Notes under the pieces: generated by a model | Databases searched by the model: none | Seen by the model: only the letters and a program-made list of their open reading frames with translations | Told to the model about the DNA's origin: nothing | NCBI GenBank assembly: GCA_007376135.1 | Contig: VMFR01000002.1 | Coordinates: 156,870 to 220,869 of the forward strand | Length of the DNA: 64,000 bases | Direction of reading: 5' to 3' | From: Parcubacteria group bacterium Gr01-1014_31 | Lineage (GTDB): Bacteria > Patescibacteriota > Patescibacteriia > Buchananbacterales > GWA2-38-13 | Part shown: one piece after another, positions 9,701-44,294 of the stretch | Numbering within the stretch: the first letter of the stretch is position 1 | Layout: each line of letters opens with the position of its first letter | Position numbers and translations under genes: made by a program

Positions 9701-11190
<1,490 letters not shown>

Positions 11191-11315: not shown

Positions 11316-11345
11316 CCCCGCCAGGTGGCGGGGTTTTTGTTATAT
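11316..11345 (+). terminator. Rho-independent terminator after the 16S
   Basis: aaaaccccgccaggtggcggggtttttgtt. Confidence 0.55.
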
Positions 11346-21477: not shown

Positions 21478-21593
21478 AACGGAAGTGTAAAGCGTAAAGT
21501 GGAAAATGCAAAATTATGGAGTCCCGCCAGAGGCGGGACAAAAGATCTTTTCCTAAGTTTTTCGTTTTACGTTTTGCATTTTACGTTTTAACC

Positions 21594-22859
21594 TTAGCGG
21601 CTGCCGAGGGTAACGGTCAATGTTTGTTCCTTACCTTGGCGCAGGATTGTTACTTTCACCGCGTCGCCGACCTTGTGTTTGGCGATGAGCCCGGAGAGTG
21701 TTGCCGACGGTTCCTCAATTTTTACGCCATCTACTTCCAGGATGATATCGTTCTCTTTGATGCCGGCGACGTCCGCCGGGGAGCCAGGGACCACGGCCAG
21801 GTCCTCGGCCGCCTCCCCCCGCAGCACCAGCGCGCCATAGTCCACGGGCAGCTGGCTTTTTTCCTTCACCGCCGCGGTGATGGGCAGATAGCGCACCCCC
21901 AGGAACGGCCGCTGGATCTTGCCCGTGGTTTTGACCTGGTCGTACACTTCGCGCACAGCGTTGGCGGGCAGCGCGAAGCCGATGCTCTGGGCGTCGGCCA
22001 TGGCGACGTTGACGCCGATGACCTGGCCGGCGATGTTGAGCAGCGGTCCGCCGGAGTTGCCGGGATTGATGGCCGCATCCGACTGGATGATGTCGTCGAG
22101 CTGTTCGCTGCGCGTGCCGCCGCCTCCGGCGCGGATGGAGCGTTTCAGGCCGGAGACGACCCCCTTGCTGACGGTGTTATCGAATTCGCCCAGTGCGTAG
22201 CCGATGGCAATAGCGGTTTGCCCGACCTGCAGCTGGTCGGAGTCGCCGAACGTCAGATATGGCAGACCGGTCTTTTCGATCTTCAGGATGGCGATGTCGT
22301 TGGCCGTATCTTTGGCCAGTACCTTGGCGATGACCTTTTCTCCGCGGTGGGCATCGTCATTGAGGATGACGGTGTACTCGGCGTCCTCATCCTCCACGAC
22401 GTGGCGGTTGGTCACGAGGTACCCGTCGGCGGACACCAAGAATCCGGTCCCGGCCCCGACCCGTTCGCGGCGGGTGCCGCGCTGGCAATAGCCGGGGATG
22501 CGGAAATCCACGCCGAAATCTTGCAGGAATTCGTCTTGAAACGGGCGCCGGTAGCAGAGCTCGATATTGGGAACGTCAGCCGCCGCGACGATGCTGACCA
22601 CCGCGGGACTGGCGCGCTTGACCACGTCAATGACCTGCGATTCCTCACTGACGACCTGGATGGCCTGGCCGCTCCCGGCCGGCACGATGCCGGCGGCCGG
22701 TGCGCGCCAGAGATTGCGCAAGGTTTGCCAGGTGCTGGCGAACGCTCCATCGGCCGGTTTGGCTTGGCTGGCGACGCGCAGGCCGAGGCTGAACCCCAGG
22801 AAAAGGAACAGCGCGACGACCAGGAGGCGCAGGGAATTTTTTGTGGCTGAGGCGACCAT
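21594..22859 (-). CDS. htrA: HtrA/DegP-family serine protease with PDZ domain
   Basis: Catalytic motifs (TNRHVV, DIAILK, GNSGGPL) and a C-terminal PDZ segment. Confidence 0.9.
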   Translation of the reverse strand: MVASATKNSLRLLVVALFLFLGFSLGLRVASQAKPADGAFASTWQTLRNLWRAPAAGIVPAGSGQAIQVVSEESQVIDVVKRASPAVVSIVAAADVPNIELCYRRPFQDEFLQDFGVDFRIPGYCQRGTRRERVGAGTGFLVSADGYLVTNRHVVEDEDAEYTVILNDDAHRGEKVIAKVLAKDTANDIAILKIEKTGLPYLTFGDSDQLQVGQTAIAIGYALGEFDNTVSKGVVSGLKRSIRAGGGGTRSEQLDDIIQSDAAINPGNSGGPLLNIAGQVIGVNVAMADAQSIGFALPANAVREVYDQVKTTGKIQRPFLGVRYLPITAAVKEKSQLPVDYGALVLRGEAAEDLAVVPGSPADVAGIKENDIILEVDGVKIEEPSATLSGLIAKHKVGDAVKVTILRQGKEQTLTVTLGSR

Positions 22860-23818: not shown

Positions 23819-24055
23819 GCTCCTATCCATACATAGCAATTGTACGGAGGGGAGTTGCAGCTGGTCAATGCGGCGGTGACGTTGACAGTCTGCGGATTTT
23901 ATGGAATGATGAGTGAACATTTTTCCCGCTTGAAGTTGTTCCGCTGACCCTGCTATAGTGCAGGCGTTCCCGTTTTTCCGGCAGTGGCTGTGGTGGTGTG
24001 TCCTCTTCGAATGACGGGACGATTCCCTCTTTGTTATTTTTTTGCATCCTTTGGT

Positions 24056-24113
24056 GGGCGCGTAGCTCAGTTGGTTATCCCGCCCCACGGCGGGACAGGG
24101 AGCGCGTCACTGA
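24056..24113 (+). pseudogene. 5' portion (tRNA positions 1-35) of an interrupted second tRNA-Ile copy, with a 20-22-nt GC hairpin inserted in the D-loop
   Basis: gggcgcgtagctcagttggtta + [tcccgccccacggcgggacagg] + gagcgcgtcactga. With the insert removed it is identical to positions 1-35 of the intact tRNA-Ile 70 bp downstream. Confidence 0.7.
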
Positions 24114-24182
24114 CCCGCCTGCCGGAGTACGGAGTCTTTAATAATGTAATATCTATTCCCCATTCCATCGTTTGTTGCTGTT

Positions 24183-24259
24183 GGGCGCGTAGCTCAGTTG
24201 GTTAGAGCGCGTCACTGATAATGACGAGGTCCCTGGTTCGACTCCAGGCGCGCCCACCA
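24183..24259 (+). tRNA. tRNA-Ile (anticodon GAT), CCA encoded
   Basis: Cloverleaf gggcgcg/cgcgccc acceptor, anticodon loop cTGATaa, T-loop ttcgact, discriminator A + CCA. Confidence 0.85.
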
Positions 24260-24296
24260 GCAGCACGTGATGGGGTGACTCCGTACGGCGGGCAGG

Positions 24297-24359
24297 TAAT
24301 GACGAGGTCCCTGGTTTTTACCCCGTCGAATGGCGGGGCGACTCCAGGCGCGCCCACCA
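24297..24359 (+). pseudogene. 3' portion (positions 36-76) of the interrupted tRNA-Ile copy, with a 22-nt GC hairpin inserted in the T-loop
   Basis: taatgacgaggtccctggtt + [tttaccccgtcgaatggcgggg] + cgactccaggcgcgcccacca. Identical to the intact gene once the insert is removed. Confidence 0.7.
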
Positions 24360-24401
24360 AAGGATGCAAGTTTTCGAGTTCGTCCTTGTCCTACAATTAT
24401 T

Positions 24402-24476
24402 GCCGAGGTAGCTCAGTGGTAGAGCGCAGGCCTGAAGAGCCTGGCGTCGTCAGTTCGATTCTGACCCTCGGCACCA
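24402..24476 (+). tRNA. tRNA-Phe (anticodon GAA), CCA encoded
   Basis: gccgagg/cctcggc acceptor, anticodon loop cTGAAga, T-loop ttcgatt. Confidence 0.85.
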
Positions 24477-24480
24477 CCAG

Positions 24481-24515
24481 AGTCCGACCCCTTGCCGGGG
24501 TCGGCTTTGTTTTAT
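24481..24515 (+). terminator. Rho-independent terminator after the tRNA pair
   Basis: agtccgaccccttgccggggtcggctttgtttta. Confidence 0.55.
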
Positions 24516-24646
24516 GGGAGTGGTTTTTGTATCGGGTTGACAGTTATGTAAAAATATGGTAGAAATAACAGAATGTTCCTTGACCCTTTTCCATCAACCA
24601 TGCGGCCCGCAACGGCCGTAATCCCTCTGTCTAAAAGGAGGACACC

Positions 24647-25792
24647 ATGCAAGGGATCAGTCTCGCCTACCTGATGGCGTGCGTGCGGGCGTTGTGGGGC
24701 GCCAATTCCAATCTCCTCAATACGGCGGTACGGCGTACCGTGACGACCGTGTCCTACGGTAAGGAAGACACACTGGCGTTGGACGCCATCGCCGAGGAGG
24801 AGATCGCCGAATCGCTCACGCGGTTCGACCACAGCGCGACGCTGGTGACCGAGGAGGCGGGTAAACTCGCGTCCGGCGACGGCAACCACCAGCACGGGGC
24901 GCAATTCTTCAGCGATCCGGTGGATGGCAGCAAGCAGCTGCAACAGTTCCTGATGCGGTCGAAGTTCGACCCGCAGGCGCGCGTGGCCGATCTCATCTAT
25001 GCCTCGTCGGCGGTCGCCGACTGGGAGAAGATGCATGGCGCGCCGGCCAGCGTGACCGGCGCCTGTAGCGCCATTACGATGGTGCGCGACGGTGTACCGG
25101 TCTTTTCGGCCATTCTCAACTTCATCAGCCAGGAGCTGGTTGTGGCGTGCCGCGACGGTATCGTGCGGATCTCGCTGCCGCACATCAAGGACGGCTTGCC
25201 CGAGCCGTTGACTCCCGCGTGGCTGTTTGGCAACGGTACGCCGCTGTCGTTCGACTGGGCGCCAGCCCAGGAGAAGGATTGGAGCCGGCCGTTCGTCACC
25301 TACCTGCCGAACGACGAGACGTATCGCAGTAACTTCCAGGGCTGCCGCATCTTCGGCGATGACGAGAAGCGGGTCGCTTCGCTGGTCGGCAAGTCCACCA
25401 CCGGTCCCGCGCGGCCGCTCTATCTGTCGGATCTGCATCGCCAGCCCCGCGTCAAGTTCGTCGCCGCCAACGGCGAAAAGATCGGGGAGTGGATCCACTG
25501 GCTGCCGTTCATCCGTTTCGCCAAGCGCGGGGACGAGCCGCTGCTGCGGCTGTACGAAGTGGTGCCCGAGCGCCCGGTGGTCAAGGGTGGCATCCTGATG
25601 AGTCCGCCGCCGGAGTATAGTATCTTCCAGCAGGTCGCTCACGGCGTGTTCCTCATCAACTGCCGCCGCCTCCGCGCGTTCCCTAACCCCTCGCTCTTCC
25701 GCTCCACACTCGTACTGCTGCCGTCGGACAACGTCCACATCCGCAGCATCATGAAGTCCAACCGCCACCGGCGCATCCAGCTCCCCTCCTAG
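24647..25792 (+). CDS. Inositol-monophosphatase/FBPase-superfamily-like protein with a long C-terminal extension
   Basis: DPVDGS metal-binding motif and an upstream EE...TEE segment. The C-terminal ~150 aa have no recognizable motif. Confidence 0.5.
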   Translation: MQGISLAYLMACVRALWGANSNLLNTAVRRTVTTVSYGKEDTLALDAIAEEEIAESLTRFDHSATLVTEEAGKLASGDGNHQHGAQFFSDPVDGSKQLQQFLMRSKFDPQARVADLIYASSAVADWEKMHGAPASVTGACSAITMVRDGVPVFSAILNFISQELVVACRDGIVRISLPHIKDGLPEPLTPAWLFGNGTPLSFDWAPAQEKDWSRPFVTYLPNDETYRSNFQGCRIFGDDEKRVASLVGKSTTGPARPLYLSDLHRQPRVKFVAANGEKIGEWIHWLPFIRFAKRGDEPLLRLYEVVPERPVVKGGILMSPPPEYSIFQQVAHGVFLINCRRLRAFPNPSLFRSTLVLLPSDNVHIRSIMKSNRHRRIQLPS

Positions 25793-25913
25793 GCGCGTCC
25801 GGTGTACCCTCGCCCGCTGCTTTTCCCAAGGCAGCGGGTTTTTTTGCTGCCGCCATCCGGCCGGTGGTATACTAAGGAAGGAACCGAAAACTTATACACT
25901 TTATCTATAACGT

Positions 25914-26591
25914 ATGGTGGAGGGGTTTTTCCGTGCGTTCCAGATCACTGCCCAGGCTGTGTGGGCGGACCTGGTTGCCAACTCTCCGCAGATCCTGGGG
26001 GCGTTGGCGGTCTTATTCTTCGGCACGTTGCTGGCGGCGACGCTGGGGTTGATCGCGTCGCGGTTCGTACGCGCGTTGCGCGTGGATCAGCTTGCCAGCC
26101 AGTTCAAGGTGAACGCCGTGATGGGCAAAGCCGGCATCAAGGATTTTTCCGTCAGCCGGCTGGTCGGATGGGTGGTCAAGTGGTTCTTCGTCGTGGTGGT
26201 GTTCCTGACCGCCGCGGATCTGCTGGGTTGGACGCAGCTGACCGAATTTTTGACGAACGTCGCCATGTACTTGCCCAAGGTACTGGTCGCCGTGCTCATC
26301 CTGTTGGCCGGCACGGTGTTGGCGAACTTCATCAGCCAGGTCGTGCGCCAAGGCGTGACGGCATCTAAGCTGGGCAACGCCGGCGTGCTGTCGGCGTTCA
26401 CCAAGTGGCTGATCATCGTGTTCACGGTGATGGCGGCGCTGGTGCAACTGGAGATCGCCAAAGAGCTGACGCAGATCCTGTTCACCGGGCTGGTGGGGAT
26501 GATCTCGCTGGCTGGAGGTCTCGCGTTCGGCCTGGGCGGCAGGGATGCTGCGAAAGATTTTCTGGACAAATTGCGTCGCGATACGCACTAG
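25914..26591 (+). CDS. Hypothetical polytopic membrane protein (conserved TM-helix repeat type)
   Basis: Four or five hydrophobic helices; no catalytic motif. Confidence 0.5.
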   Translation: MVEGFFRAFQITAQAVWADLVANSPQILGALAVLFFGTLLAATLGLIASRFVRALRVDQLASQFKVNAVMGKAGIKDFSVSRLVGWVVKWFFVVVVFLTAADLLGWTQLTEFLTNVAMYLPKVLVAVLILLAGTVLANFISQVVRQGVTASKLGNAGVLSAFTKWLIIVFTVMAALVQLEIAKELTQILFTGLVGMISLAGGLAFGLGGRDAAKDFLDKLRRDTH

Positions 26592-26708
26592 TTCGGACGT
26601 CCCTACTGCGATGAACACCGCGCCCCGCGAATGCGGGGCGCGGTTCGTTGCGGCACGATTGACGTACGCGATTATTGTGCGCTAGGGTGCAGACAGTCAT
26701 GCGACCGG

Positions 26709-26781
26709 CGGGGATTAGCGCAGTTGGTAGCGCGCTTGGTTTGGGACCAAGAGGTCGCGGGTTCGAATCCCGCATCCCCGA
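26709..26781 (+). tRNA. tRNA-Pro (anticodon TGG), CCA not encoded
   Basis: Acceptor cggggat/atccccg, D-stem gcgc, anticodon arm cttgg-tTTGGga-ccaag, T-arm gcggg-ttcgaat-cccgc. Confidence 0.75.
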
Positions 26782-26798
26782 TTTCAAATTTTTCGTTT

Positions 26799-26875
26799 CG
26801 TGGGTTTCCCGCCACCGTAATGTAATTTATTACGAGGGCGGGACCTCCCGCCAACGGCGGGATGGCAAATCCCAC
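26799..26875 (+). repeat. Copy A of a ~80-bp hairpin repeat (gggtttcccgcc / AT-rich core / ggcgggacc / cccgccaacggcggg)
   Basis: Homologous block-for-block to 36296-36360. Shares the cccgccNNNNggcggg hairpin and the taatgtaat core with the tRNA-Ile locus (24078-24160). Confidence 0.65.
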
Positions 26876-26949
26876 CAGCCCGATTTTTTCTCCCGCATGT
26901 CCCGAGTGGTTTTTCACCGAGCTTCTCCGTTGGCTACTGAAGTGTTGCT

Positions 26950-28956
26950 ATGATTGCAGCGCTTTTCTTTTTTTTACTGCAGCTGGGTGCAGGCTGGGCC
27001 TGTCTGCCGCTGTTGGACCCGACGCGGCGCTGGTCGCTGCCGGTGCGGGCGGTCGCCGGTAGCGTCGTCGGGCTGGTAGTTTCCGGGTATGCGGTTTTGT
27101 TGGCCGCCCTGCTGACGCGTTCATTGTCTTTCGGGATCCTCGCCTTCTCCATTTTGGCCGCCGTGGCGGTCATTTGGCGCTGGCGCTGTGATCCTCCGGT
27201 GAAGGAAAAAGTTTTCGGGGCGTTCGCAGGGATCTCGCGCGCGCCGGCCGCATGGGCGGTGGCCGGTATTGCGGGGCTGGTGAGCCTGCTGGGATTGCAG
27301 GTGTTGCTGCCGGATAAGGTGTTCGTGCGGGCGATCTTCGTCGGCTGGGGGGATGCGGCATACCACTTGAGCATCATCCAGCGGTTCGCCGTGGCGCAGC
27401 CGTTCACGCTGGAGCATCCCGTGTTTTCCGGGCACACCCTCACCTACCCGTTCTTGGTGGATTTTTTGTCGGCGTTGTACCGGCGGCTGGGGGCATCGGC
27501 GCTGTTCTCCTACCACCTGCCCGTCGTTGCCCTGGCGGTCGCCGGGGTCGCGTTGCTTTTCTCCTGGTATCGCACGCTGCGGATCCGCCATGGTCTGGCC
27601 GTGGTGCTCCTGGCGGTGGCGTTGTTCGGTGCGGGTCTGGGGTGGCTGTGGTTGGGTCGCGATTTTTCCGCAGCATGGCAAACCGGAGGCACCGTTGGGA
27701 TTTCGGAAACATTGCGTGATCTGCCGCATGAGTACACCCACCTGGACCGGCGTACCAGCGGACTGCGCGCAGGCACGGAGAGCGACGCGAATATCGTGTG
27801 GATGGTGCCGGTCCTGTCATTCCTTACCCATCAGCGCGGGTTTGCCCTGGGCCTGGCTCTCGGGATGGTTGTGCTCTACGCGCTGGCGATGCGCGCGACG
27901 GCACCCTGGGTAGTTGGAGTGCTGGCGGGTTTGCTGCCTCTGGCGCACGGGCACACTTTTTTCGCGCTCGGGCTGGTCGGCGCGGCGTGGTTTTTGGTCG
28001 GCTGGCCGAACCGGCGATTCTGGCTGCGCGCGGCGCTGCCGGCGGCTATCATCGCGCTGCCGGCGCTCTTGTATCTGCGCGCCGGTCTATCCGGCAGCGG
28101 CGGCGGAACCGCGATGCGCTGGTGGTTGGGGTGGATGACCTGTACCCATGAGCGGCATTGGCTGCTGTGCGACCAGCCTGTCCCGGCGGGCGCCGACACT
28201 TCGGTGCTGTGGTTTTGGCTGAAGAATTTCGGCGGAGTTCTGGTCGCTTGGGCGGCCGTGCTGCTTGTTGCCGTTTCGCGTTGGCGGAAACGGGAGCGAA
28301 CAAGTCTATCGGCAGTCCCATTACTGCTGCCCTCCGTGCTGCTGTTCGCGGTTCCCAACCTGGCGAGGCTGCAGCCCTGGGAGTTTGATAATAATAAGGT
28401 GCTGTTCTGGTGGTGGCTGTTTGCCATCGGCGCCATCGGCCAGTACCTCATGCTGCTGCCGCGGCCGTCCTTTCGGCGGTGGACGGCAGTCGCCCTGGCG
28501 GCGGTCGCGCTGCCGGCGGGGGTTACCGACGTTGCGTCGCGCCTGGGGCATTGGTCCACGTATCACTCCGGGTACGTGCAAGCGGCTGACCGCACGGCCG
28601 CCGACTGGATCATAGAACATTCCGTTCCTAATGCGGTCATTGCCGCCGCGCCCAGCGCCCACAGTTTTGTGCCGTTGCTGACGGGCCGGCCGTTGGCGCT
28701 TGGGTATGAAGGCTGGCTCTGGAGCCAGGGGGTCAACCTTGCGCCGCGCGTGGCGGCGATCTCCGCGCTCGCACGCGGAGAGATCGCCCCGGCCTGTCGC
28801 GAAGGTGTGCAGTTCGTCGTCGCGGATGCCGATTTCTTTCAACGGTTCGGGGGCGACAGCGCGGCGCTGGCGGGGGTAACGGAACTGCGCTGGCAGCAGG
28901 AAACGCCGCGCGGACCACGCCGCATCTACGCGCTCCCCTGTACTCCGCAGCCTTGA
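26950..28956 (+). CDS. Large polytopic integral membrane protein (668 aa, function unknown; possibly a glycosyl/arabinosyl-transferase-like membrane enzyme)
   Basis: More than 12 predicted TM helices plus a C-terminal soluble domain. No recognizable motif. Confidence 0.5.
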   Translation: MIAALFFFLLQLGAGWACLPLLDPTRRWSLPVRAVAGSVVGLVVSGYAVLLAALLTRSLSFGILAFSILAAVAVIWRWRCDPPVKEKVFGAFAGISRAPAAWAVAGIAGLVSLLGLQVLLPDKVFVRAIFVGWGDAAYHLSIIQRFAVAQPFTLEHPVFSGHTLTYPFLVDFLSALYRRLGASALFSYHLPVVALAVAGVALLFSWYRTLRIRHGLAVVLLAVALFGAGLGWLWLGRDFSAAWQTGGTVGISETLRDLPHEYTHLDRRTSGLRAGTESDANIVWMVPVLSFLTHQRGFALGLALGMVVLYALAMRATAPWVVGVLAGLLPLAHGHTFFALGLVGAAWFLVGWPNRRFWLRAALPAAIIALPALLYLRAGLSGSGGGTAMRWWLGWMTCTHERHWLLCDQPVPAGADTSVLWFWLKNFGGVLVAWAAVLLVAVSRWRKRERTSLSAVPLLLPSVLLFAVPNLARLQPWEFDNNKVLFWWWLFAIGAIGQYLMLLPRPSFRRWTAVALAAVALPAGVTDVASRLGHWSTYHSGYVQAADRTAADWIIEHSVPNAVIAAAPSAHSFVPLLTGRPLALGYEGWLWSQGVNLAPRVAAISALARGEIAPACREGVQFVVADADFFQRFGGDSAALAGVTELRWQQETPRGPRRIYALPCTPQP

Positions 28957-29025
28957 TATCCGGGGTCGTTCAGGAATGGTATACTAGGGGAAAGGTCGGA
29001 GGGTCTCAATTTTGTCCCTATCTAT

Positions 29026-29235
29026 ATGGAAAATCAACCAATGCACAGCAATTCATGTTCCTGCCCGCACCACAAGGTGGTGCCGTTGGCGGTAGCCTTG
29101 ATCGGGGCGCTGTTCTTCCTGCAGAACATTGGCGTGCTGGGGAGCGGCATCGTGAACGTGTTGTGGCCGCTGGCGCTGCTCGCCGCCGGTCTGACCAAGG
29201 CGTTCGGGAGCAGTTGCAAGTGCTGCGTGAAGTAG
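29026..29235 (+). CDS. Small membrane protein (69 aa) with C-terminal Cys cluster
   Basis: Two TM-like segments; followed by a terminator hairpin (ggccgccccggtggggcgg). Confidence 0.4.
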   Translation: MENQPMHSNSCSCPHHKVVPLAVALIGALFFLQNIGVLGSGIVNVLWPLALLAAGLTKAFGSSCKCCVK

Positions 29236-29334
29236 CTTACAGGGAAGGCCGCCCCGGTGGGGCGGTTTTCTGTTACCTCTTGTTCCGCGGTTCGTTCAAT
29301 GGTAGGGTTAGGGGTGCTCTAACTCTTTATTTCC

Positions 29335-30333
29335 GTGCCTATGCCCGAGACTACCGTGCGCAAGCCCAACGCTTTTGACGCGTTCGTCCACCTGGTGGCG
29401 TACGTCGCCCTGGTGTGGTCGGCCGTCTCCGTGGGCGGCATCATTTTTCAATTCATCAATCGGTTCGTGCCGGCGCTGGAACCAGGCGCGTACGTCTACG
29501 CGACCGACGCGGTCAGCACCGGCGCGTTGCGGTTCCACATTGCCACGCTGCTCTTGACCGGTCCGTTGTTGCTTTCCATGACCGCCTACCTGCACCGCCT
29601 GTTCAAGCAGGGTGCGCTGGTCACCGACAGCGGCGTGCGGCGCTGGCTGACGTACCTGCTCCTGTTCGCCGCGGCGGTCAACATCGTCGGCAGCGTCATC
29701 GCCTTGGTGTACCAATTCCTCGGCGGCAACTACACGGTGAATTTCCTGCTCAAAGCGGCAACCATCCTCGTGATCGCGGGCGGCATTTTCGGCTTCTACT
29801 TTTGGGAGCTGAAGCGGGGTACCTACCAGACCCGCCATCCCGGTGCCCTCCCGCTGGTGGCCGGCTTGGGCGTACTGTTCGTGGGACTGCTGATTGGCGG
29901 GTTTTTGCTCATCGGTTCTCCGCGCTTGGCGCGGATGCGCGAGTACGACCGGATGCGCGTGGACCGCGCGGTGCAGTTGAACTACCAGTTGGGCGATGAA
30001 TACCGTCGCACCGGTGCACTCCCCGCGACACTTTCCAATTTTGACCCGGCGTTCACCGAGGATCCGGAGCATGGCGCGCCGTTCGTCTACCGCAAGGCAG
30101 CCGACGACCGGTATGAGCTCTGTGTGACGTTCGCGGTATCCGCCCCCGAGCCGGTGGTACCGAAGGGCGTGCCGCCGTCGCGCGTACCCAAGCCCTATGG
30201 GGGCAGCGGCGGCGTCGAGCAGGCGTGGTACGAGCACGGCGAGGGCGAAGTCTGTAATACCTTTACGGTCAAGCGCCAAACTGCTGACGACCAATTCATC
30301 GAGACCCAGGTGGAAAAACCAGCTTCTCGCTAG
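29335..30333 (+). CDS. DUF5671-like membrane protein
   Basis: Four N-terminal TM helices then a soluble C-terminal domain, the arrangement typical of DUF5671 proteins. Confidence 0.5.
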   Translation: MPMPETTVRKPNAFDAFVHLVAYVALVWSAVSVGGIIFQFINRFVPALEPGAYVYATDAVSTGALRFHIATLLLTGPLLLSMTAYLHRLFKQGALVTDSGVRRWLTYLLLFAAAVNIVGSVIALVYQFLGGNYTVNFLLKAATILVIAGGIFGFYFWELKRGTYQTRHPGALPLVAGLGVLFVGLLIGGFLLIGSPRLARMREYDRMRVDRAVQLNYQLGDEYRRTGALPATLSNFDPAFTEDPEHGAPFVYRKAADDRYELCVTFAVSAPEPVVPKGVPPSRVPKPYGGSGGVEQAWYEHGEGEVCNTFTVKRQTADDQFIETQVEKPASR

Positions 30334-30712
30334 TTTGAAAGCCCAGCAACGAATATACCCCCGATAGCCTCGGGGGTATATTTATACTCCATCCACTTCT
30401 CCTTTCCACCTTTCGTTCCCGCTCTTTTCTCGCGGCCTGGATATTTCCGGGCCGTTTTTTTGCCCGTTCATATGCCATAGGATATCCACCCTTGATTATT
30501 TGACTGGCGGTTCTATGCTTTGGTTCATCAAATCCACTTCTCGGGGATGTTCAGGATGCCGCAGGGATGTTCTGCCGCACGAGAGTGGCCTTTTCTTTTA
30601 CCTGTGAATTTCGGCTGCGGCGCGCGTGCGTCGCTGGTTGAAAATTTGCAGCACCCGTTCTTTCCGATTCTTTTTTGGACCCCCAGGCTGGTTTCCCAGT
30701 CCGGGGATGACA

Positions 30713-30745
30713 ACGATAAAACCCCGCGGCCGCGGGGTTTTATCG
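30713..30745. terminator. Bidirectional terminator hairpin
   Basis: aaaaccccgcggccgcggggttttatcgttg. Confidence 0.55.
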
Positions 30746-30765
30746 TTGTGCTCGGGACGGGTTTG

Positions 30766-30936
30766 CTACAGGCAGGTGCATTTTGCTTGCGGCTGGTTGC
30801 AGCCCGTGCATTTGGGCTGGCAATGATTGGCGCCGCAACGGTGCGTTGGCTGGGGCTCGGCAAATTCCTCGCCGCACGCATCGCATTTGAAGCCGTCGGC
30901 ACTGCCGTCGCATTTGGCGCAGACGAGGTTGTGCAT
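30766..30936 (-). CDS. Cys-rich small protein (56 aa, 10 Cys, 3 His); metallothionein-like or zinc-ribbon protein
   Basis: MHNLVCAKCDGSADGFKCDACGEEF...HRCGANHCQPKCTGCNQPQAKCTCL. Upstream tataatgagaaaact precedes the ATG. Confidence 0.5.
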   Translation of the reverse strand: MHNLVCAKCDGSADGFKCDACGEEFAEPQPTHRCGANHCQPKCTGCNQPQAKCTCL

Positions 30937-31086
30937 AGTTTTCTCATTATACGGATTTGCCCCCGTCGCGGGCAAGCGCCCCTTGCCGCGGACGGTTTCG
31001 GGGTGTACCATAGGCGCTACCATCCACGTGCGAAGACTCGTGCTTTCTCCCGCCTACTAATTTTATAGGTATCTCCTCGTGCGAGA

Positions 31087-31157
31087 GCGGGTATTGTATA
31101 ATGGCATTACCTCAGCTTTCCAAGCTGATGACGCGGGTTCGATTCCCGCTACCCGCT
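31087..31157 (+). tRNA. tRNA-Gly (anticodon TCC), CCA not encoded
   Basis: Acceptor gcgggta/tacccgc, anticodon arm tcagc-ttTCCaa-gctga, T-arm gcggg-ttcgatt-cccgc. The D-stem has one U-U mismatch, so the parse is moderately confident. Confidence 0.7.
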
Positions 31158-31202
31158 CTCGCACGAGGAAAGGAAGGTAGGCGGGATCCCGCCCGCGGCG
31201 AG

Positions 31203-31313
31203 ACAAGCTGATGACGCGGGTTCGTCCTATACCAGAGCAAAGCACAGTATAGGACGCCCTGTACCGTGTTCCGCAAAGCGGAACTCTGGTACTGGGGCGA
31301 TTCCCGCTACCCG
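31203..31313 (+). pseudogene. Second copy of the tRNA-Gly 3' half (positions 36-72), interrupted by a 75-nt structured insert in the T-loop (between 55 and 56)
   Basis: caagctgatgacgcgggtt + [cgtcctata...ctgggg] + cgattcccgctacccgc. Identical to the intact gene outside the insert; the insert has nested inverted repeats (ccagag...ctctgg, tcctatac...gtatagga, gttccgc...gcggaac). Confidence 0.65.
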
Positions 31314-31414
31314 CCTACATGAATACCGGCGCTGACGCGCCGGTTTTTGGTGAATAAAAAAAGCCCCGGCGGTTGTAGCAACCGCGCGGGGCCAACGGTG
31401 CGGAGCCAACGAGG

Positions 31415-32380
31415 CTACTCGCCTTCGATGCCCGCCATCCGGAAGAGGATGGCGCGAAGTCTAATGATACCGACGGTTTGTCCGCCCTCGGTGACCTCGC
31501 CCACGTGCGGTTCGCGCCGTAGCAGGTGGAACGCTTCGCTGATAACCATATCCAGCGGCACGTCCACCATACCGTGGATGAGCCCGGCTTTGGCCAGGTC
31601 GATGGTGGCGTCGGGAGCGTCGCTTTTTCCCAGATGGTTGATGAGGTCGCGCCGTCGCACGATGCCCAGCACCGTCTTGGGGTCACCCTCCGCGATGACG
31701 ACGATGTGGCTATGGCGGATGGCCGCCTCCACCAACTGCTGGCGGGTTGGCCGCTGGGTGATGGCGGTACATTTGTCCAGCGGTATGTAGAGCTCCCGGA
31801 CCTTGCGGTTGCCGACGCGGATCAGCGTCTGGATGAGTCCGGCCTCCTCCGGGTCCAGGGTCCCGTGCTCTCGGGCCGCTTGGGCGGTGGCGATGACGTC
31901 TTCTTCGCGGTAGATGCGGCGTTCCGTGCCGCCCGTCAGGCGGTTGGTCAGCCGCAGCGCCCACGTGATGGGGAAGCACAGCCACAGCAATAGCCGGATG
32001 GGCACGGCGGACAGCAGCGCCGACCGCATGGCGTACTTGTACCCGATGTTCTTGGAGACGATCTCCCCGAAGAAGAACAGCGCCACTGCGTAGATGGCCA
32101 GGATCGCATTGATGCCGCCGTCCATGTCAATGGAGAGCCGGCCCAGCACCAGCGGCGTGAAGTACGTCAGCAGGTGGATGGCAAACAGGATGAAACCGAC
32201 CACGATCATTCGTTCGTCGTTCAACTGGCGGATGGCTTTGGTCGCGGACGTTCGTCCGCCGGATTTGCCCTCATGGGCGACCACATCGTGGTCGTAGACG
32301 GTCAGCCAGACCACTTCGAGCAGGGAGAACACGAAAATGAGGACGAACGAAATGACCATAACGAGTGTAATGAGCCACAC
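31415..32380 (-). CDS. CNNM/HlyC-CorC-family membrane protein (DUF21 transmembrane domain plus tandem CBS domains)
   Basis: N-terminal 4-TM DUF21-like region, then a CBS pair (IVVIAEGDPKTVLGIVRRRDL, ...). GTG start at 32378-32380 preceded by aaggagg. Confidence 0.75.
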   Translation of the reverse strand: MWLITLVMVISFVLIFVFSLLEVVWLTVYDHDVVAHEGKSGGRTSATKAIRQLNDERMIVVGFILFAIHLLTYFTPLVLGRLSIDMDGGINAILAIYAVALFFFGEIVSKNIGYKYAMRSALLSAVPIRLLLWLCFPITWALRLTNRLTGGTERRIYREEDVIATAQAAREHGTLDPEEAGLIQTLIRVGNRKVRELYIPLDKCTAITQRPTRQQLVEAAIRHSHIVVIAEGDPKTVLGIVRRRDLINHLGKSDAPDATIDLAKAGLIHGMVDVPLDMVISEAFHLLRREPHVGEVTEGGQTVGIIRLRAILFRMAGIEGE

Positions 32381-32577
32381 GGGAAACCTCCTTTGTAGTG
32401 TTCCATCGGGTTGGCGCGAAATTTGCGATTGTTCAAGGACATTCAAGCGCGGTGCTTGAGGGAGGATGCTACCAAAAAAATCATAGAATGTCAATATGAA
32501 CCAGTCGTTCGTCTTGGCGTGAACCTGAAAATTATGGCATAATATACTTATCAACATCACCACGTTTATTTAATTGT

Positions 32578-35295
32578 ATGGAGGGAATGCCCCAGCCGAC
32601 GCCGATGCCGCCCGTTCCGCCACGACCGGTCCAGCGAATACCGACCGCTCCGCCCGTACCGCAGTCCTCACCCGCCCCAAGACGTTCGCATCGGGGTTTG
32701 GTGGTTATCGTGTTGGTGTTGTTGTTTTTGGTCGCGGCGGGCGCCGTGGCTGCGCTCGGGTATTTTGGGGGGTGGTTTGGCCCCAAAAAGACTTCTCAGC
32801 TCTCGGATGACGAGATCCTTTCACGGGCGCTGCAGATGCTGCCAGAGATCAAGTCCGGCTCGGTTCGGTTTGACATCGGGTTCAAGTCCGAACCGCGCGA
32901 TGAGGGGGCAAAACCCATTACCGATGAGATTCCAGGCCTGGAAGAGCGGCGCAAGGCGAGAAATCGTGATGGCGAACGGCTGCAAGATATCCAGCGGTTG
33001 ATGTCCTCGCTGCGCGTTCGTAGCCGAAGTTCGACGAGTCCTTCCGCGAGCACCGGGGTGCAACCCAGCTACCCGCAGACTTTGGATGAGTTCGTGCTTG
33101 ACCCGGAAACGCGTACCGATCCCAGCGGCGGCAGCTATCGCTACAGCAGCAGCGGCAGCGATTTCTCGCTCGCTTTCCGCCTGGAAACTTCATCGGCGGT
33201 GGCCTCCTGGAACAAGCAACTGGATGGTACGCGCACCTACGGCAGTACCACCGCCGCCCCGCCGCGGGCCGTTGTAAATCAGGACATCACCCTGACGGCG
33301 GCGCATGAGACCCCATACGTGTATCTGGGCAGCGACGGTCTGGACCCGCTGGCGATGTTCGATAGCGACAGCCTGGATATGTACCAGTGGCTGCCCAGCG
33401 ATCTGGATACTTCATTCAACATTTGGAGCGATTTCCAGGCGCCGTCGGCCGACGGCAAACCGAGCAACGCATCCGCCGGGCTCGGCGCGAAGGTCGCGAT
33501 GGGCGCGTTCACCTTCGCTGGCAGCGGGGAGGTCCGCAAGGTTGGTGAAGTAATGTACGGCCGCGTCAACGAGTTTCCGGCACTTGGATTTTTCGACCTC
33601 AATGCCATCAAAGGCAAGTGGGTCGCGATGACCGAGGAAGATCTCATCGGCAGCGGCTTGGCCGTCAATTTCGCCGAGGTCAAAGAGGAGGTTTCTAAAG
33701 AGAACGCGACGGCCGTCAAGCAGTACCAGCTGGCGATCGCCTTGGCGCGCGAGCAGGGCGTGCTGAGCATTGAGCAGGTCCTGCCGATGACCGAAGAGAA
33801 CGGCGTTCGCTACCACCACTACCGGTTGAAGTTCGATCGCACGAAGTTCGTCGGTTATTACCAGGCGCTGGCGGAGCGTTCCAAGGCCGAGTTCGGCAAC
33901 GACGCGGTCGTGAAATTCAGCCAGGAGGTCGTGGATTATCTGCAGAACGAGGACTTCGCGCTCGCCTACGATGCTCTGGCGAAGAACACCGCTGCGGAAG
34001 TCTGGGTGCAGGAAAAGACCTATCTGCCGCGACAACTCGCATTCAGCGTCCGTCTGGTGCCGCCGGATGCGGCCATCAAACACGCCGGCAAACAGTTCAA
34101 GCTCAAAACGTCGGTGACGCTGGACAAGGTCAACCAGCCGGTGTCGGTGGAAGCGCCGTCCCCCACCATCAGCGTGGATGAGGCCACGGGGCTAGTTACT
34201 GGGCAGTCGCCGGCGCAGATCGTGCTCCAGCGCCAGATTCGCAACGTGGAGGCCATTCGCACGGCGTTACGGAAGTACCGCCAGCATGCCGGTGCCTATC
34301 CCGAGACGCTTACCGACTTGAAGCGTAAGCCGAGCGAGGTCCCACGCGCGACTCCGACTCCTAAGCCGGCTCGCGGCTCGCTGCAGGAAACCGTGAATAT
34401 TGGACTCCAGTACGGTACGGTCGTGGGGTTTGGCGGAACAGAAGATTGGGAGGAGCCGAGCACCAAGAACGACGCACCCTTCCTCAAGGTTATCCCGAAT
34501 GATGTCTACACCAAGCAGCCGTATCCGTACCAGCGCGATGGCGAGGGATACACGGTCAAATACCAGGTCCAGCTGGTCAAGGATGAAAACTCGGAGCGCA
34601 GTCCGTGGTCGTCGTATGCGCAGTACGTGGAAGGAGAGAATACCGCCGACCAGAGTTCTCTCTCGCGGGAGCAGGAAACGACCGAGGACAGCGATCATGA
34701 CGGTTTGAGCGACCGGCAGGAGCGGGATGTCTATGGCACAAGCCCGTATGATGACGACACCGACAACGACGGCTTCAAGGACGGCGTGGAGGTGCGCGGT
34801 GGCTATAACCCCAAGGGTGACGGTCGGCTGCAGACAGGGCAAACCCAGCCGGAAACCTCGTTGTCGGGAGGTACGACATCGGTGACCATGCGTGACCGCC
34901 AGCGCGTGTCCGACATGAAGCAGCTGCAAACGGCGTTGGAGATCTACTTCAACGACAAAGGCGCCTACCCGCCGGAATCCGGCGACGGTGAGATCGGCAA
35001 CCCGACCAACGGGTTCGGTTGTCTTGGTGATCTTGGTTGGGAGCAGGATAATATGTGTGCGTCACCGATTTACATGGGGTTGACGCCCCATGATCCGAGT
35101 ACCACCGTCGCTAACCCGGGGAATGACAATCCTTGCAAAACGGAAGGTGTGTTGCCGTGCAACTATTCCTACAACCAGTTGTCGGGAAACACTTACGAGA
35201 TTCATTTTCGACTGGAGGCAAACACCGGCGGCCTGAGCAGCGGATTGAACTGCGCTTCCGAGGCAGGCACAAGTAGTAAAGGATGCGTCCATTAG
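32578..35295 (+). CDS. Large signal-anchored surface protein with two internal type-IV-pilin-like head domains and Asp-rich Ca-binding (thrombospondin-type-3-like) repeats
   Basis: Pro-rich N-terminus then a TM helix. Two pilin-like segments (IVLQRQIRNVEAIRTALRKYRQHAGAYP and MRDRQRVSDMKQLQTALEIYFNDKGAYP) and DSDHDGLSDRQERD...DDDTDNDGFKDGVE repeats. Confidence 0.6.
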   Translation: MEGMPQPTPMPPVPPRPVQRIPTAPPVPQSSPAPRRSHRGLVVIVLVLLFLVAAGAVAALGYFGGWFGPKKTSQLSDDEILSRALQMLPEIKSGSVRFDIGFKSEPRDEGAKPITDEIPGLEERRKARNRDGERLQDIQRLMSSLRVRSRSSTSPSASTGVQPSYPQTLDEFVLDPETRTDPSGGSYRYSSSGSDFSLAFRLETSSAVASWNKQLDGTRTYGSTTAAPPRAVVNQDITLTAAHETPYVYLGSDGLDPLAMFDSDSLDMYQWLPSDLDTSFNIWSDFQAPSADGKPSNASAGLGAKVAMGAFTFAGSGEVRKVGEVMYGRVNEFPALGFFDLNAIKGKWVAMTEEDLIGSGLAVNFAEVKEEVSKENATAVKQYQLAIALAREQGVLSIEQVLPMTEENGVRYHHYRLKFDRTKFVGYYQALAERSKAEFGNDAVVKFSQEVVDYLQNEDFALAYDALAKNTAAEVWVQEKTYLPRQLAFSVRLVPPDAAIKHAGKQFKLKTSVTLDKVNQPVSVEAPSPTISVDEATGLVTGQSPAQIVLQRQIRNVEAIRTALRKYRQHAGAYPETLTDLKRKPSEVPRATPTPKPARGSLQETVNIGLQYGTVVGFGGTEDWEEPSTKNDAPFLKVIPNDVYTKQPYPYQRDGEGYTVKYQVQLVKDENSERSPWSSYAQYVEGENTADQSSLSREQETTEDSDHDGLSDRQERDVYGTSPYDDDTDNDGFKDGVEVRGGYNPKGDGRLQTGQTQPETSLSGGTTSVTMRDRQRVSDMKQLQTALEIYFNDKGAYPPESGDGEIGNPTNGFGCLGDLGWEQDNMCASPIYMGLTPHDPSTTVANPGNDNPCKTEGVLPCNYSYNQLSGNTYEIHFRLEANTGGLSSGLNCASEAGTSSKGCVH

Positions 35296-35423
35296 GTTTT
35301 TCAAAAATCGTCCCGGAAACGGGGCGATTTTTTTATTGCGGAATCAGGGGGTAAACTATTGACAATTTAGGTCAATTATGCTAGGATACACACTTCCCCA
35401 ATTAGGGGATTTTTTATTAGACT

Positions 35424-35897
35424 ATGGCCAAAAATTCAGTCTTCCGTCGCTCCTTTGGCGTAGCCGTTCTCGTCTCCACCCTCTCGCTGCTTTTGGCTAC
35501 CTATCCGGGCGTTGCCGCCGCTCCTCAGGGGGTCGACGACTATCCGGACGCCGTACAGCGTCAGGCGGAAATGGCCGCGTCCGCGCCGAAGGTCGTGCGC
35601 ACGATGAAGGTTATGGTGACGGCCTACAACAGTCTGCCCGAGCAGACCGACAGCACGCCGTGCATCACCGCCAGCGGTTACAACCTGTGCAGGGCCAATG
35701 AAGAGAACGTGGTTGCCGCCAATTTCCTGCGGTTCGGCACCAAGGTGCGCCTGCCTGAGTATTCCGGGGAACGGGTCTACACCGTGCAGGACCGCATGCA
35801 CCCGCGGTTTAACCGCCGGATGGACCTGTGGATGCGCGAACGTTCCGCCGCCAGGAAATTCGGTCTGCGGACGCTGACGGTGGAAGTGCTAGAGTAA
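35424..35897 (+). CDS. 3D-domain protein (MltA/YocH/SpsK-like peptidoglycan-binding/lytic domain) with signal peptide
   Basis: MKVMVTAYNSLPEQTDSTPCITASG is the 3D-domain signature; N-terminal signal peptide. Confidence 0.65.
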   Translation: MAKNSVFRRSFGVAVLVSTLSLLLATYPGVAAAPQGVDDYPDAVQRQAEMAASAPKVVRTMKVMVTAYNSLPEQTDSTPCITASGYNLCRANEENVVAANFLRFGTKVRLPEYSGERVYTVQDRMHPRFNRRMDLWMRERSAARKFGLRTLTVEVLE

Positions 35898-36108
35898 TCT
35901 CCATTAGTGCCAGAAAATGCCGCGGTCTTCCGCGGCATTTTTGGTCCCCGTGGCTTGAAAAGCGGTATTTACGGTGGTACGCTGGGGCGTACCAAGTGTT
36001 TGGGCGCGTTTTGCCCCGCAAGGGAAGACCGCCAGTCGAGGAGCTGTCCATTCAACCTTTTACATCATGTCTTTGTCGCGGTGGTGGGCAACATTTTGAC
36101 CCCATTGA

Positions 36109-36136
36109 GGCCAGGTAGCCAAGTGGTAAGGCAACG
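36109..36136 (+). pseudogene. Isolated copy of tRNA-Cys positions 1-29 (5' fragment)
   Basis: ggccaggtagccaagtggtaaggcaacg is identical to the first 28 nt of the intact tRNA-Cys 54 bp downstream. Confidence 0.65.
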
Positions 36137-36189
36137 CGGCGTCACGCGTTAAAAATTTCTTTTCGTAGAGTCGCTTTTGGCGGCAGGGA

Positions 36190-36261
36190 GGCCAGGTAGC
36201 CAAGTGGTAAGGCAACGGTCTGCAAAACCGTTATTCACGGGTTCGATTCCCGTCCTGGCCT
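36190..36261 (+). tRNA. tRNA-Cys (anticodon GCA), CCA not encoded
   Basis: Acceptor ggccagg/cctggcc, anticodon arm acggt-cTGCAaa-accgt, T-arm acggg-ttcgatt-cccgt. Confidence 0.8.
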
Positions 36262-36295
36262 CCTTGCCGCCAACTTCGTTGTTGCGTATTGATGG

Positions 36296-36360
36296 ACGGG
36301 TTTCCCGCCTCCGAAATATTTTTTTAAGAAAGGAAGGCGGGACCCCGCCAACGGCGGTGG
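36296..36360 (+). repeat. Copy B of the ~80-bp hairpin repeat (gggtttcccgcc / AT core / ggcgggacc / ccgccaacggcgg)
   Basis: Block-for-block homology with 26799-26875. Abuts the tRNA-Cys 3' fragment. Confidence 0.65.
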
Positions 36361-36379
36361 CGATTCCCGTCCTGGCCTC
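36361..36379 (+). pseudogene. Isolated copy of the tRNA-Cys 3' end (T-loop position 56 to acceptor end)
   Basis: cgattcccgtcctggcctc is identical to the 3' 19 nt of the intact tRNA-Cys and starts exactly at T-loop position 56. Confidence 0.65.
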
Positions 36380-36507
36380 GGTGCGGTCAATCGCGGTCGC
36401 GGTTCGTGTAGGGGTTGGTCGGTCCTCAGTCTTGGAGGGCCGATTTTTATGTCAGGCTTGCGAAAAATGCCGTTTTCTGATATTCTCAAGCAGTCTTTAC
36501 GACCCCT

Positions 36508-43965: not shown

Positions 43966-43982
43966 TTGGTATGGCGAAAAAT

Positions 43983-44022
43983 AAAAACGTTCACCTGGCG
44001 GTGAACATCTTTCTGGTGCGCC
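43983..44022 (-). repeat. Distal copy of a 40-bp direct repeat (minus-strand terminator hairpin plus the last 9 nt of the tRNA-Lys 3' end), followed by a degenerate tRNA-like sequence with hairpin inserts
   Basis: aaaaacgttcacctggcggtgaacatctttctggtgcgcc is identical to 44188-44227. Confidence 0.6.
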
Positions 44023-44187
44023 TAGAGAGGATCGAAGTCGGTCCGATGCCCATCGGACCTCCCCATAGGGGCTTCCGCCCCTCTGGTGCTCGCTGCGCTC
44101 GCGGTCACCCCCGGCAATGCGGGGGAGTTTTTCCTCCCCCGCCACCCCCACGTTCGATTCCCTGGCGGATAAACATTGTTAATAAAG

Positions 44188-44227
44188 AAAAACGTTCACC
44201 TGGCGGTGAACATCTTTCTGGTGCGCC
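44188..44227 (-). repeat. Proximal copy of the 40-bp repeat: functional terminator (gttcaccgccaggtgaac + T-run on minus strand) plus the tRNA-Lys 3' end
   Basis: Identical to 43983-44022. Confidence 0.6.
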
Positions 44228-44294
44228 CAGAGGGAATCGAACCCCCAACCGTTGGCTTAAGAGGCCACTGCTCTGCCAATTGAGCTATGGGCGC
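44219..44294 (-). tRNA. tRNA-Lys (anticodon CTT), CCA encoded
   Basis: Reverse complement: gcgccca...anticodon loop cTCTTaa...ggttcgattccc...tgggcgc a cca. Confidence 0.8.

Follow-up and report, generated by a model that had tools for sequence, protein, structure and literature searches.

A tRNA-Gly locus in a Patescibacteria metagenome contig, read as the possible relic of a tRNA-invading, nuclease-driven cassette

The locus described here, a tRNA-Gly(TCC) gene surrounded by displaced and interrupted tRNA pieces, has its closest described counterparts in phage nuclease genes lying among tRNA genes, in nuclease genes placed in the middle of essential genes, in group I introns of tRNA genes, in tRNA-targeting integrative elements and in the split tRNA genes of archaea. 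It lies in a stretch of 64,000 nt (in the following the window), which is part of the 288-kb metagenome contig ENA ERZ27284378, k139_644634. We lean towards reading it as a relic, devoid of an open reading frame (ORF), of a cassette that is driven by a nuclease and inserts itself into tRNA genes.

Among phage systems, SegB and other free-standing GIY-YIG homing endonucleases of T4-like phages resemble the arrangement studied here in that a nuclease gene lies among tRNA genes. SegB has about 220 amino acids (aa) and includes a DNA-binding domain, whereas the ORFs described below encode about 85 aa, are chromosomal and belong to a UPF0213/SLX1-like branch consisting of the catalytic domain alone. 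The segB gene lies between genes, while the ORF here lies inside a tRNA gene that is rescued by a duplicated copy; hairpin modules have not been described for SegB, and the ORFs here are known from sequence alone. SegB cuts tRNA genes at RAWTSGAAC and drives preferential inheritance and segmental duplication of the adjacent tRNA genes (PMC13096335). In our reading, this motif corresponds to the T-loop sequence GTTCSAWTY on the opposite strand. In ‘fractured genes’ an essential gene is likewise interrupted by a free-standing nuclease gene and its function is saved by a compensating device, which there is protein trans-splicing of split inteins and here a complete second copy of an RNA gene (PMC2677866). 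Group I introns at 35/36 of tRNA-Asn and tRNA-Asp have been found in Patescibacteria (PMC13011429); they share with the present locus the phylum, the class of target gene and the unusual 35/36 site, whereas the inserts here have no group I match, are not preceded by U, and interrupt incomplete copies that are backed by an intact gene.

With tRNA-targeting integrative elements the locus shares an intact tRNA followed by direct repeats of its 3' part, as well as the anticodon-loop and T-loop sites; a preference of such elements for certain sublocations within the tRNA gene was reportedly described by Williams in 2002. Here, in contrast, there is no integrase, 5' fragments are present, the hairpins lie in the loop itself and the ‘elements’ are only tens of bases long. 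The split and multi-intron tRNA genes of archaea (Nanoarchaeum, Thermoproteales, Caldiarchaeum) also combine several non-canonical interruptions with complementary flanks, but they are the only gene copy and are spliced by EndA at bulge-helix-bulge motifs. Here the host is a bacterium, as seen from the 16S rRNA gene found in the window by an Rfam search, an intact copy is always adjacent, and no such motif is visible.

The tRNA genes were called with ARAGORN and the Rfam model RF00005, and the coordinates of all features are given in Table 1. Both methods found the intact tRNA-Gly(TCC) that had been proposed in a sequence-only reading of this DNA; it is the inner, functional copy. It does not encode CCA, and its acceptor stem together with 13 leader and trailer bases forms a perfect 20-bp stem. 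A retrocopy of a mature tRNA was rejected as the origin of the fragments since these lack CCA just as the gene does. According to the same reading, the tRNA is bracketed by the 9-mer CCCGCCTAC and its inverted copy GTAGGCGGG. The first was placed correctly (31049-31057), and the inverted copy is present at 31177-31185 instead of 31178-31186. The 9-mer does recur downstream, at 31310-31318 and not at 31309-31317, but it is no independent repeat there, as the acceptor 3' strand supplies five of its bases. In the minimum-free-energy fold it is this downstream copy with which the right terminal arm pairs.

The duplicated part begins at tRNA position 36 as claimed, its span having to be moved by one base (31204-31314, not 31203-31313). 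Outside the insert all 36 of 36 bases agree with the intact gene, 31204-31224 representing C36 to G57 and 31298-31314 repeating 31140-31156 (C56 to C72); at the discriminator position the copy has C and the intact tRNA T. The 75-nt T-loop insert, correctly recognized as built of inverted repeats, consists of two hairpins, TCCTATAC...GTATAGGA (31225-31254) and GTACC...GGTAC (approximately 31261-31292), with a G-run as tail, i.e. the two-hairpin architecture of the Cys and Pro-like T-loop inserts described below. CG stands at both ends of the insert, and the proposed break at 55/56 is only one of three placements besides 56/57 and 57/58; with the last one the insert starts with TCC, as in the rest of the family.

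Three features had been missed: the 20-bp stem, a small hairpin (31187-31203) and, upstream of 31049, what is probably a decayed 5' half. The small hairpin belongs to the same motif class as the Ile D-loop insert at 24078-24099, and its equivalent in strain L005 is TCCCGCCAGCGGCGGGA. The stretch 31004-31048 is tentatively assigned as the decayed 5' half of an outer tRNA-Gly; its D-arm-like part is conserved between strains, and at the putative end of the 5' half L005 has GCCTCAGTTTTCT followed by CCCGCC, compared with ACCTCAGCTTTC followed by C in the tRNA. The TCCCGCC of the left terminal arm is also conserved in L005, and the terminator downstream of the 3' half is kept in strains L003, L005 and L006.

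Table 1. Coordinates of the features of the tRNA-Gly locus and of the other damaged tRNA loci (positions in the window)
Feature	Position	Strand	Remarks
Probable decayed 5' half of an older (outer) tRNA-Gly copy (tentative)	31004-31048	+	D-arm-like TGTACCATAGGCGCTACC at 31004-31021; anticodon-loop-like CTTTC at 31043-31047; ends at insert start
Left terminal arm of insert, TCCCGCCTAC	31048-31057	+	Pairs with 31177-31186; inverted repeat of 10 nt, 100% complementary
Leader arm of 20-bp stem extending the acceptor stem of the intact tRNA-Gly	31074-31086	+	Inverted repeat 31074-31093 / 31150-31169, 20 nt, 100% complementary
Intact tRNA-Gly(TCC), inner copy	31087-31157	+	ARAGORN; Rfam RF00005, 64.6 bits; 3' end 31157 or 31158
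Trailer arm of 20-bp stem	31158-31169	+	Inverted repeat
Right terminal arm, GTAGGCGGGA	31177-31186	+	Pairs with 31048-31057, alternatively with 31310-31318
Small cargo-less hairpin TCCCGCCCGCGGCGAGA, TCCCGCC-CGC-GGCGAGA	31187-31203	+	Abuts position 36 of the 3' half copy
3' half copy, part 1, tRNA positions 36-57	31204-31224	+	Direct repeat of 31121-31141, 21 nt, 100% identical
75-nt double-hairpin insert in T-loop	31225-31299	+	Boundary ambiguous by 2 nt (31223-31297 if break at 55/56)
3' half copy, part 2, tRNA positions 58-72	31300-31314	+	Identical to the intact gene; direct repeat
Second direct copy of CCCGCCTAC	31310-31318	+	Last five acceptor 3'-strand bases plus CTAC; start of the flank common to all strains
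Intrinsic terminator of the ancestral tRNA-Gly transcription unit	31325-31349	+	8-bp stem, then TTTTT
tRNA-Ile nested in a second tRNA-Ile	24056-24359		Inner intact gene at 24183-24259
Pro-like T-arm/acceptor fragment	26800-26890		Downstream of tRNA-Pro(TGG); T-stem GTGGG/CCCAC, acceptor CAGCCCG, homologous 59-nt double hairpin
tRNA-Cys complex	36108-36383		5' fragment 1-28, intact gene in 20-bp stem, T-arm fragment with 58-nt double hairpin
tRNA-Lys repeat	43979-44057 and 44184-44241	-	58 nt, 93% identical; T-loop, 3' end and terminator

If the locus derives from an invading cassette, an older tRNA-Gly would have been broken in the anticodon loop between positions 35 and 36, and the inserted DNA, with the complementary ends TCCCGCC...GGCGGGA, would have carried a complete replacement tRNA-Gly in a long leader/trailer stem, so that the cell would keep a working gene. 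The displaced 3' half (36-72) would have been left downstream and later have gained a second, cargo-less double hairpin in its T-loop, and the displaced 5' half would largely have decayed. Mechanistically, we propose that a nuclease would cut cassette-free tRNA genes at exposed loops; repair from a cassette-bearing copy would follow, with the tRNA halves, and in close relatives also the neighbouring DNA, serving as homology arms; nuclease gene, spare tRNA and hairpin ends would be copied in, and the cassette would thus spread by homing.

Variation between strains was seen directly. Four other contigs encode an identical neighbouring CNNM protein, with DNA in the flanks 91-97% identical to the window; three of the four reach into the Gly locus, where their structure differs from that of the window. 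The intact tRNA-Gly of the strains differs from the window copy at six positions, and its leader/trailer pair (TTTTGCGGCCACA / GTGGCCGCAAAA) is unrelated in sequence to that of the window (TCCTCGTGCGAGA / CTCGCACGAGGA), both pairs being complementary; in L005 the 13-nt pair has been replaced by a different, equally complementary one. Two 3' halves follow the strain tRNA, with ...GGCGGGA or ...GGCGGGCAGG in front of each. A T-loop insert is absent from the first; the second contains, at 56/57, the 21-nt insert CCCGCCTGCCGGACGGGCAGG, whose two ends coincide with those of the large Ile insert. In the variable loop the fragments have the bases found in the intact gene of the respective strain. Upstream of the strain locus TTTCT followed by CCCGCC is conserved, and the bases before it, GCCTCAGTTTTC, match the anticodon stem and loop ACCTCAGCTTTC of tRNA-Gly; tentatively, this match would represent the decayed 5' half of the outer copy, and the Gly plan would then be nested like that of Ile. 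Altogether, two structurally different alleles with sharp boundaries exist at the Gly locus among these closely related strains, and no empty, uninvaded allele is among them. Relatives of the CNNM protein (L007-L009) have no tRNA nearby. Short-read contigs of the population often end inside or beside tRNA complexes (L003, L004, L006, L066), which is consistent with repeats breaking assemblies.

The breakpoints follow the structure of the tRNA. A census covered 123 exact tRNA fragments from about 95 loci, and internal fragment ends peaked at positions 35 (12, plus 4 at 34), 12 (6), 21-22 (9) and 26 (6), internal starts at 36 (9; 18 over 35-37) and 56 (8). TCC was the commonest triplet after internal ends (20 times) and GGA stood before internal starts 24 times, with about 1.5 expected, i.e. 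the inserts have the common termini TCC...GGA. This tabulation, of the kind suggested in the sequence-only reading, bears out its view that the breaks are recurrent, tied to tRNA structure and non-random. Its observation that Gly and Ile share the 35/36 break is likewise borne out by the outer tRNA-Ile, in which 22-35 and 36-55 are separate pieces.

Double hairpins of the Gly type occur in other genomes as well. When one genome per species (185,579 species) was scanned with the T-loop pattern GGTT-TCCCGCC...GGCGGG...GGC-RAWYCC, 39 loci were obtained; about 15 occurrences are real double hairpins and the remainder are chance matches in GC-rich coding DNA. The real ones come from metagenome-assembled genomes mostly labelled Patescibacteria, including a sister species of the window organism. 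Their T-stem is paired at 3 to 5 of 5 positions (fully in 10/15), and the hairpins with a paired T-stem read TCCCGCC...GGCGGGA, CCCCGCC...GGCGG, then GG. An intact tRNA is found 15-90 nt upstream of the double hairpin in 12/15; the fragment is sometimes identical to this tRNA and sometimes derived from a diverged one. When viral contigs were scanned twice, no T-arm with hairpins was met and all matches were chance ones in GC-rich coding DNA; a phage origin was rejected on account of this absence from the viral contigs scanned.

These data also bear on splicing, which the sequence-only reading had listed among its possible processes. The inserts could be a new kind of protein-spliced RNA intron, the outer copies would then be working tRNA genes of the split or multi-intron type, and an intron would house a further tRNA; the breaks do fall in loops, and the outer tRNA-Ile would be perfect if its three inserts were removed. 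Deletion of the T-loop hairpins, however, yielded a normal stand-alone tRNA in 0 of 15 occurrences (L013 gave only an anticodon-less call). It follows that working genes do not tolerate the inserts, and this speaks against splicing. Essential tRNA parts are missing from the Gly, Cys, Pro-like and Lys copies, from the Gly copy for instance positions 1-35, and only the outer tRNA-Ile would be complete, with its intact twin inside it. No Rfam family, introns and ribozymes included, matched any insert, either at the gathering threshold or with E up to 5 over 23950-36450. Position 35 before the inserts is A or C and not the U required by a group I 5' splice site. Archaeal-type splicing was rejected as no bulge-helix-bulge geometry is seen at the junctions, which were judged by eye and not by a formal scan. 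The hairpins fold equally well on both strands (8/20 better on the sense strand; 16 vs 16 G-U pairs), which fits DNA palindromes rather than a selected RNA structure; RNA-level selection on the hairpins was rejected on this ground. We regard spliced introns as a very improbable explanation.

The nuclease of the proposed cassette is known from loci elsewhere. At tRNA-Cys (L029), tRNA-Pro (L041) and tRNA-Thr (L017) loci, a small ORF lies between a hairpin-studded 5' tRNA remnant and the intact tRNA. The ORFs of these loci and of L014 and L015, about 85 aa in length, are GIY-YIG domains (PF01541, E 1e-11 to 1e-17); that of L017 contains an in-frame stop, and that of L015, directly upstream of tRNA-Gln in the sister species, is frameshifted. 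Among solved structures, UPF0213 proteins (EF2693, BH0048) come closest, followed by SLX1 structure-specific endonucleases and then I-TevI. To remove selection bias, metagenome contigs were searched with an alignment of the protein alone; 573 relatives were found and the best 80 kept. Among these best 80 of 573, a tRNA lies within 150 nt of the nuclease gene in 64 loci, always in the same orientation, and begins where the ORF ends or shortly behind it in 57; when the 80 were clustered at 90% identity, the linkage held in 59/72 clusters and comprised 12 isotypes. Flanking fragments occur at 61 of 88 co-oriented tRNAs, typically as a 5' piece immediately before the ORF, a 3' piece downstream, or both. 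With about one tRNA per 20 kb, a linkage below a few percent is roughly expected by chance. The nuclease gene is linked to its presumed target tRNA far more often than that.

Individual loci reveal how the parts are arranged. L101 and L102 have the order positions 1-35, ORF, intact tRNA-Ala in a leader/trailer stem, positions 36-76. In L093, from a genome with 41% G+C, the tRNA-Ile layout resembles that of the window, with nearly the same GC-rich D-loop hairpin at 21/22. At L014 556-590 a tRNA-Tyr fragment (positions 15-35) ends at 35/36 and runs straight into a 22-bp stem with an intact tRNA-Thr(TGT); the remnant that houses a cassette can hence stem from another tRNA.

Within the window, a scan for split T-arms returned exactly the Gly, Ile, Cys, Pro-like and Lys loci. 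The cleanest case of the nested plan is tRNA-Ile. The outer gene is cut into 1-21, 22-35, 36-55 and 56-76, each piece being 100% identical to the inner gene, and has its own 21-bp leader/trailer stem (ttgcatcctttggt.../...accaaaggatgcaa). Its inserts are a 22-nt hairpin (TCCCGCCCCACGGCGGGACAGG) in the D-loop at 21/22, a 183-nt insert at 35/36 in the anticodon loop (CCCGCCTGCC...GGCGGGCAGG), which starts with CCCGCC and holds the inner tRNA-Ile, and another 22-nt hairpin at 55/56 in the T-loop. The region folds in a fully nested manner, cloverleaf in cloverleaf (-187.6 kcal/mol, z = -11.2). Just upstream of it, at 23968-24030, lies a 52-nt TCCCGT...ACGGGA hairpin with CGATTCCCTCT behind it, the sequence of positions 56-66 of tRNA-Lys; this may be a fifth split T-loop relic.

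At the Cys locus the 5' fragment (1-28) ends in a new hairpin, AACGCG-GCGTCA-CGCGTT, and downstream of the intact gene positions 49-55 and 56-73 are separated by the 58-nt double hairpin at 55/56. The locus is identical base for base in an independent assembly from another sequencing run and is therefore not an assembly artefact. The window and the sister species (L038) agree at 99-100% over 530 bp (35855-36385), compared with about 89% in the flanks. This block comprises the entire Cys complex, a terminator and some 200 nt of intergenic DNA without annotation, and it would represent either a recent recombination tract or a strongly constrained RNA. The Pro-like fragment comes from a tRNA different from the neighbouring tRNA-Pro and may be the fossil of a lost isoacceptor gene. 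The distal copy of the tRNA-Lys repeat is preceded by a TCC...GGA-type hairpin, TCCGATgggcATCGGA. Leader/trailer stems of 12-13 bp are found only at the nested Ile, Gly and Cys genes and not at Phe, Pro, Lys or Arg; that such stems are a general trait of tRNA precursors in the clade was rejected, only 13/84 tRNAs having them.

The same breaks at Ile, Cys, the Pro-like fragment and Lys, the fold of the Gly region (z = -9.4 against shuffles) and the reproduced Cys locus take the pattern beyond chance. Isolated decay, in which a chance tandem duplication of part of tRNA-Gly would have been followed by random insertions, accordingly has little to offer beyond the fact that the exact 75-nt insert has no second copy in the 64-kb window. 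The sequence-only reading had named such singularity as a mark of decay, which within the window is true of the sequence as such, but the architecture belongs to a widespread family. Breakpoints and insert architecture are repeated at four other tRNA loci of the window and at dozens of loci elsewhere, the fragments are 100% identical to the intact gene, and the structure of the locus differs between close strains. Decay of this kind is the least credible of the explanations considered.

An origin from integrases or from IS200/IS605-type or RAYT transposases, as suggested in the sequence-only reading, finds no backing in the window, where neither the Pfam scans of the ORFs nor the precomputed Pfam matches of the called genes gave any integrase or transposase. 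The fragments could still be attL/attR scars of elements that carried the 3' part of a tRNA, recombined in the anticodon or T-loop and were later deleted to a few dozen bases, leaving tandem 3' fragments behind. The classical scar is indeed an intact gene with direct repeats of its 3' part behind it, strain L005 has two serial 3' halves, and the repeat extends over the downstream terminator in L024 and at the Lys locus. Partial tRNAs arranged in tandem beside islands have reportedly also been seen with the tycheposons of Prochlorococcus. At the Gly locus, however, the expected 36-72 repeat is present but interrupted by 75 nt in the T-loop; the foreign hairpins there, as elsewhere, lie inside the 7-nt loop, the would-be crossover overlap, where a tyrosine-integrase crossover cannot leave them. 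Ile, Cys and many other loci have 5' fragments upstream of intact genes, which elements carrying a 3' part would not make, and the fragments are cut into pieces of 12-22 nt. As neither the window nor the fetched flanks contain an integrase and the viral contigs scanned gave no match, integration scars appear improbable.

The main rival of a nuclease-driven cassette takes the hairpin modules as autonomous small palindromic mobile elements similar to MITEs or REPs. They would be moved in trans, insert into single-stranded hairpin loops of tRNA-gene DNA and survive in redundant partial copies made by ordinary duplication, the GIY-YIG gene being a separate passenger. Several observations are in line with this: the conserved TCC...GGA termini, the palindromic inserts without strand bias, hairpins that are more alike at different tRNAs of one genome than between genomes, the same GC-rich hairpin in genomes of 41% and 61% G+C, and cargo-less double hairpins exactly at 35/36 (L085, L118, L093) or 55/56 in many loci. 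GTAG precedes the hairpin at 31177 as in REPs, which may be coincidence. On the other hand, neither HUH/RAYT or IS200/IS605 genes nor other transposase genes were seen in the window, which covers the lesser part of the genome, or noticed beside the loci, and the sequences left of the inserts vary (GGTT, GGTTA, CTGA, TTTC). Mobile palindromes would leave two things unaccounted for, the matching partial copy at most affected tRNAs and the intact tRNA nested between complementary insert ends. We consider them a rather unlikely explanation of the locus as a whole.

The proposal of a nuclease-driven cassette has weak points of its own. No GIY-YIG ORF of 40 aa or more was found by phmmer in any frame of the window or among the called genes from 26.5 to 71 kb, and no GIY-YIG ORF or recognizable remnant was seen in the 64-kb window or about 7 kb beyond. 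The nuclease link of the Gly locus therefore runs through shared architecture only, and Gly, Ile and Cys in the window would be relics or non-autonomous copies. The ORF at the other loci is a bare catalytic domain without DNA-binding domain, and the model does not account for the escape of the inner tRNA from cutting. Nor does it account mechanistically for the hairpin modules, which may be an independent mobile palindrome in dispensable tRNA copies. That the first hairpin carries the ORF as cargo, as suggested by L101 and L102, was rejected as a general rule because inverted repeats around the ORF exceed those of shuffles in only 6/74 loci. Loci of the T-loop type, in which a 44-76 fragment comes after an intact tRNA, resemble tandem partial duplications more than nested genes. 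Where the intact gene has changed in a particular strain, the 3' half copies have changed with it, so that gene conversion or repeated regeneration would be needed. As to the hairpin modules, they could be element ends, footprints or repeat-breakers that shield the cassette from deletion. The last is an attractive idea: the hairpins chop the tRNA repeats into blocks of 12-28 nt (mostly ≤22 nt), which would be too short for efficient recombination, and the cassette would thereby be protected.

Besides the tRNA loci, the window encodes a DUF5671 protein and many proteins without Pfam match, a gene content typical of Patescibacteria. Its 16S rRNA gene (9695-11188) stands alone; downstream come a terminator and a methyltransferase ORF, not tRNA and 23S genes, and the rRNA genes are therefore unlinked. 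The tsaD gene (61328-62371, minus strand) appears as two called genes (137 and 201 aa) on the ENA contig and as one gene of 345 aa in the Logan assembly of another run, which may reflect a frameshift or a difference in gene calling. CCCGCC-loop-GGCGGG hairpins between A-runs and T-runs at 11317, 15285, 17154 and 47191 look like the standard, partly bidirectional terminators of the genome, and they have a core in common with the tRNA-loop inserts. A hairpin of the same class, TCCCGCCAGAGGCGGGA, is located at 21522-21538, at codons 3-8 of an ORF (21516-22850) without Pfam match.

The individual components, a free-standing homing-endonuclease gene, tRNA fragments and small palindromic repeats, are of known kinds. 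Their combination appears new: a nuclease gene in a tRNA gene, a nested spare copy, loop-specific breakpoints and TCC...GGA modules. Literature searches on Patescibacteria, on UPF0213/YhbQ/COG2827 and on interrupted tRNA, with incomplete coverage of the literature, yielded no description of the GIY-YIG and tRNA arrangement. More speculatively, and with considerable doubt, UPF0213/SLX1-like GIY-YIG proteins and TCC...GGA hairpin modules might together form an unrecognized class of mobile element that reads DNA structure (hairpin or cruciform loops) and not sequence, colonizes D, anticodon and T loops across Patescibacteria and is kept harmless by a spare tRNA in its own hairpin. Such elements would represent a third route into an essential gene beside self-splicing introns and inteins, and a very large uncharacterized family of bacterial proteins would gain a function. 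The favoured reading of a nuclease-driven cassette, if right, would itself mean that an essential RNA gene can be invaded without splicing, the invader supplying the replacement gene, and would suggest a testable role for the widespread UPF0213 mini-nucleases, related to eukaryotic SLX1. Assemblies breaking at tRNA genes would be accounted for, and tRNA finders may both miss and over-call genes in this phylum. Patescibacteria, with genomes among the smallest known, would then put up with an active selfish element at most of their tRNA loci, its marks being seen on five of the seven tRNA genes of the window.

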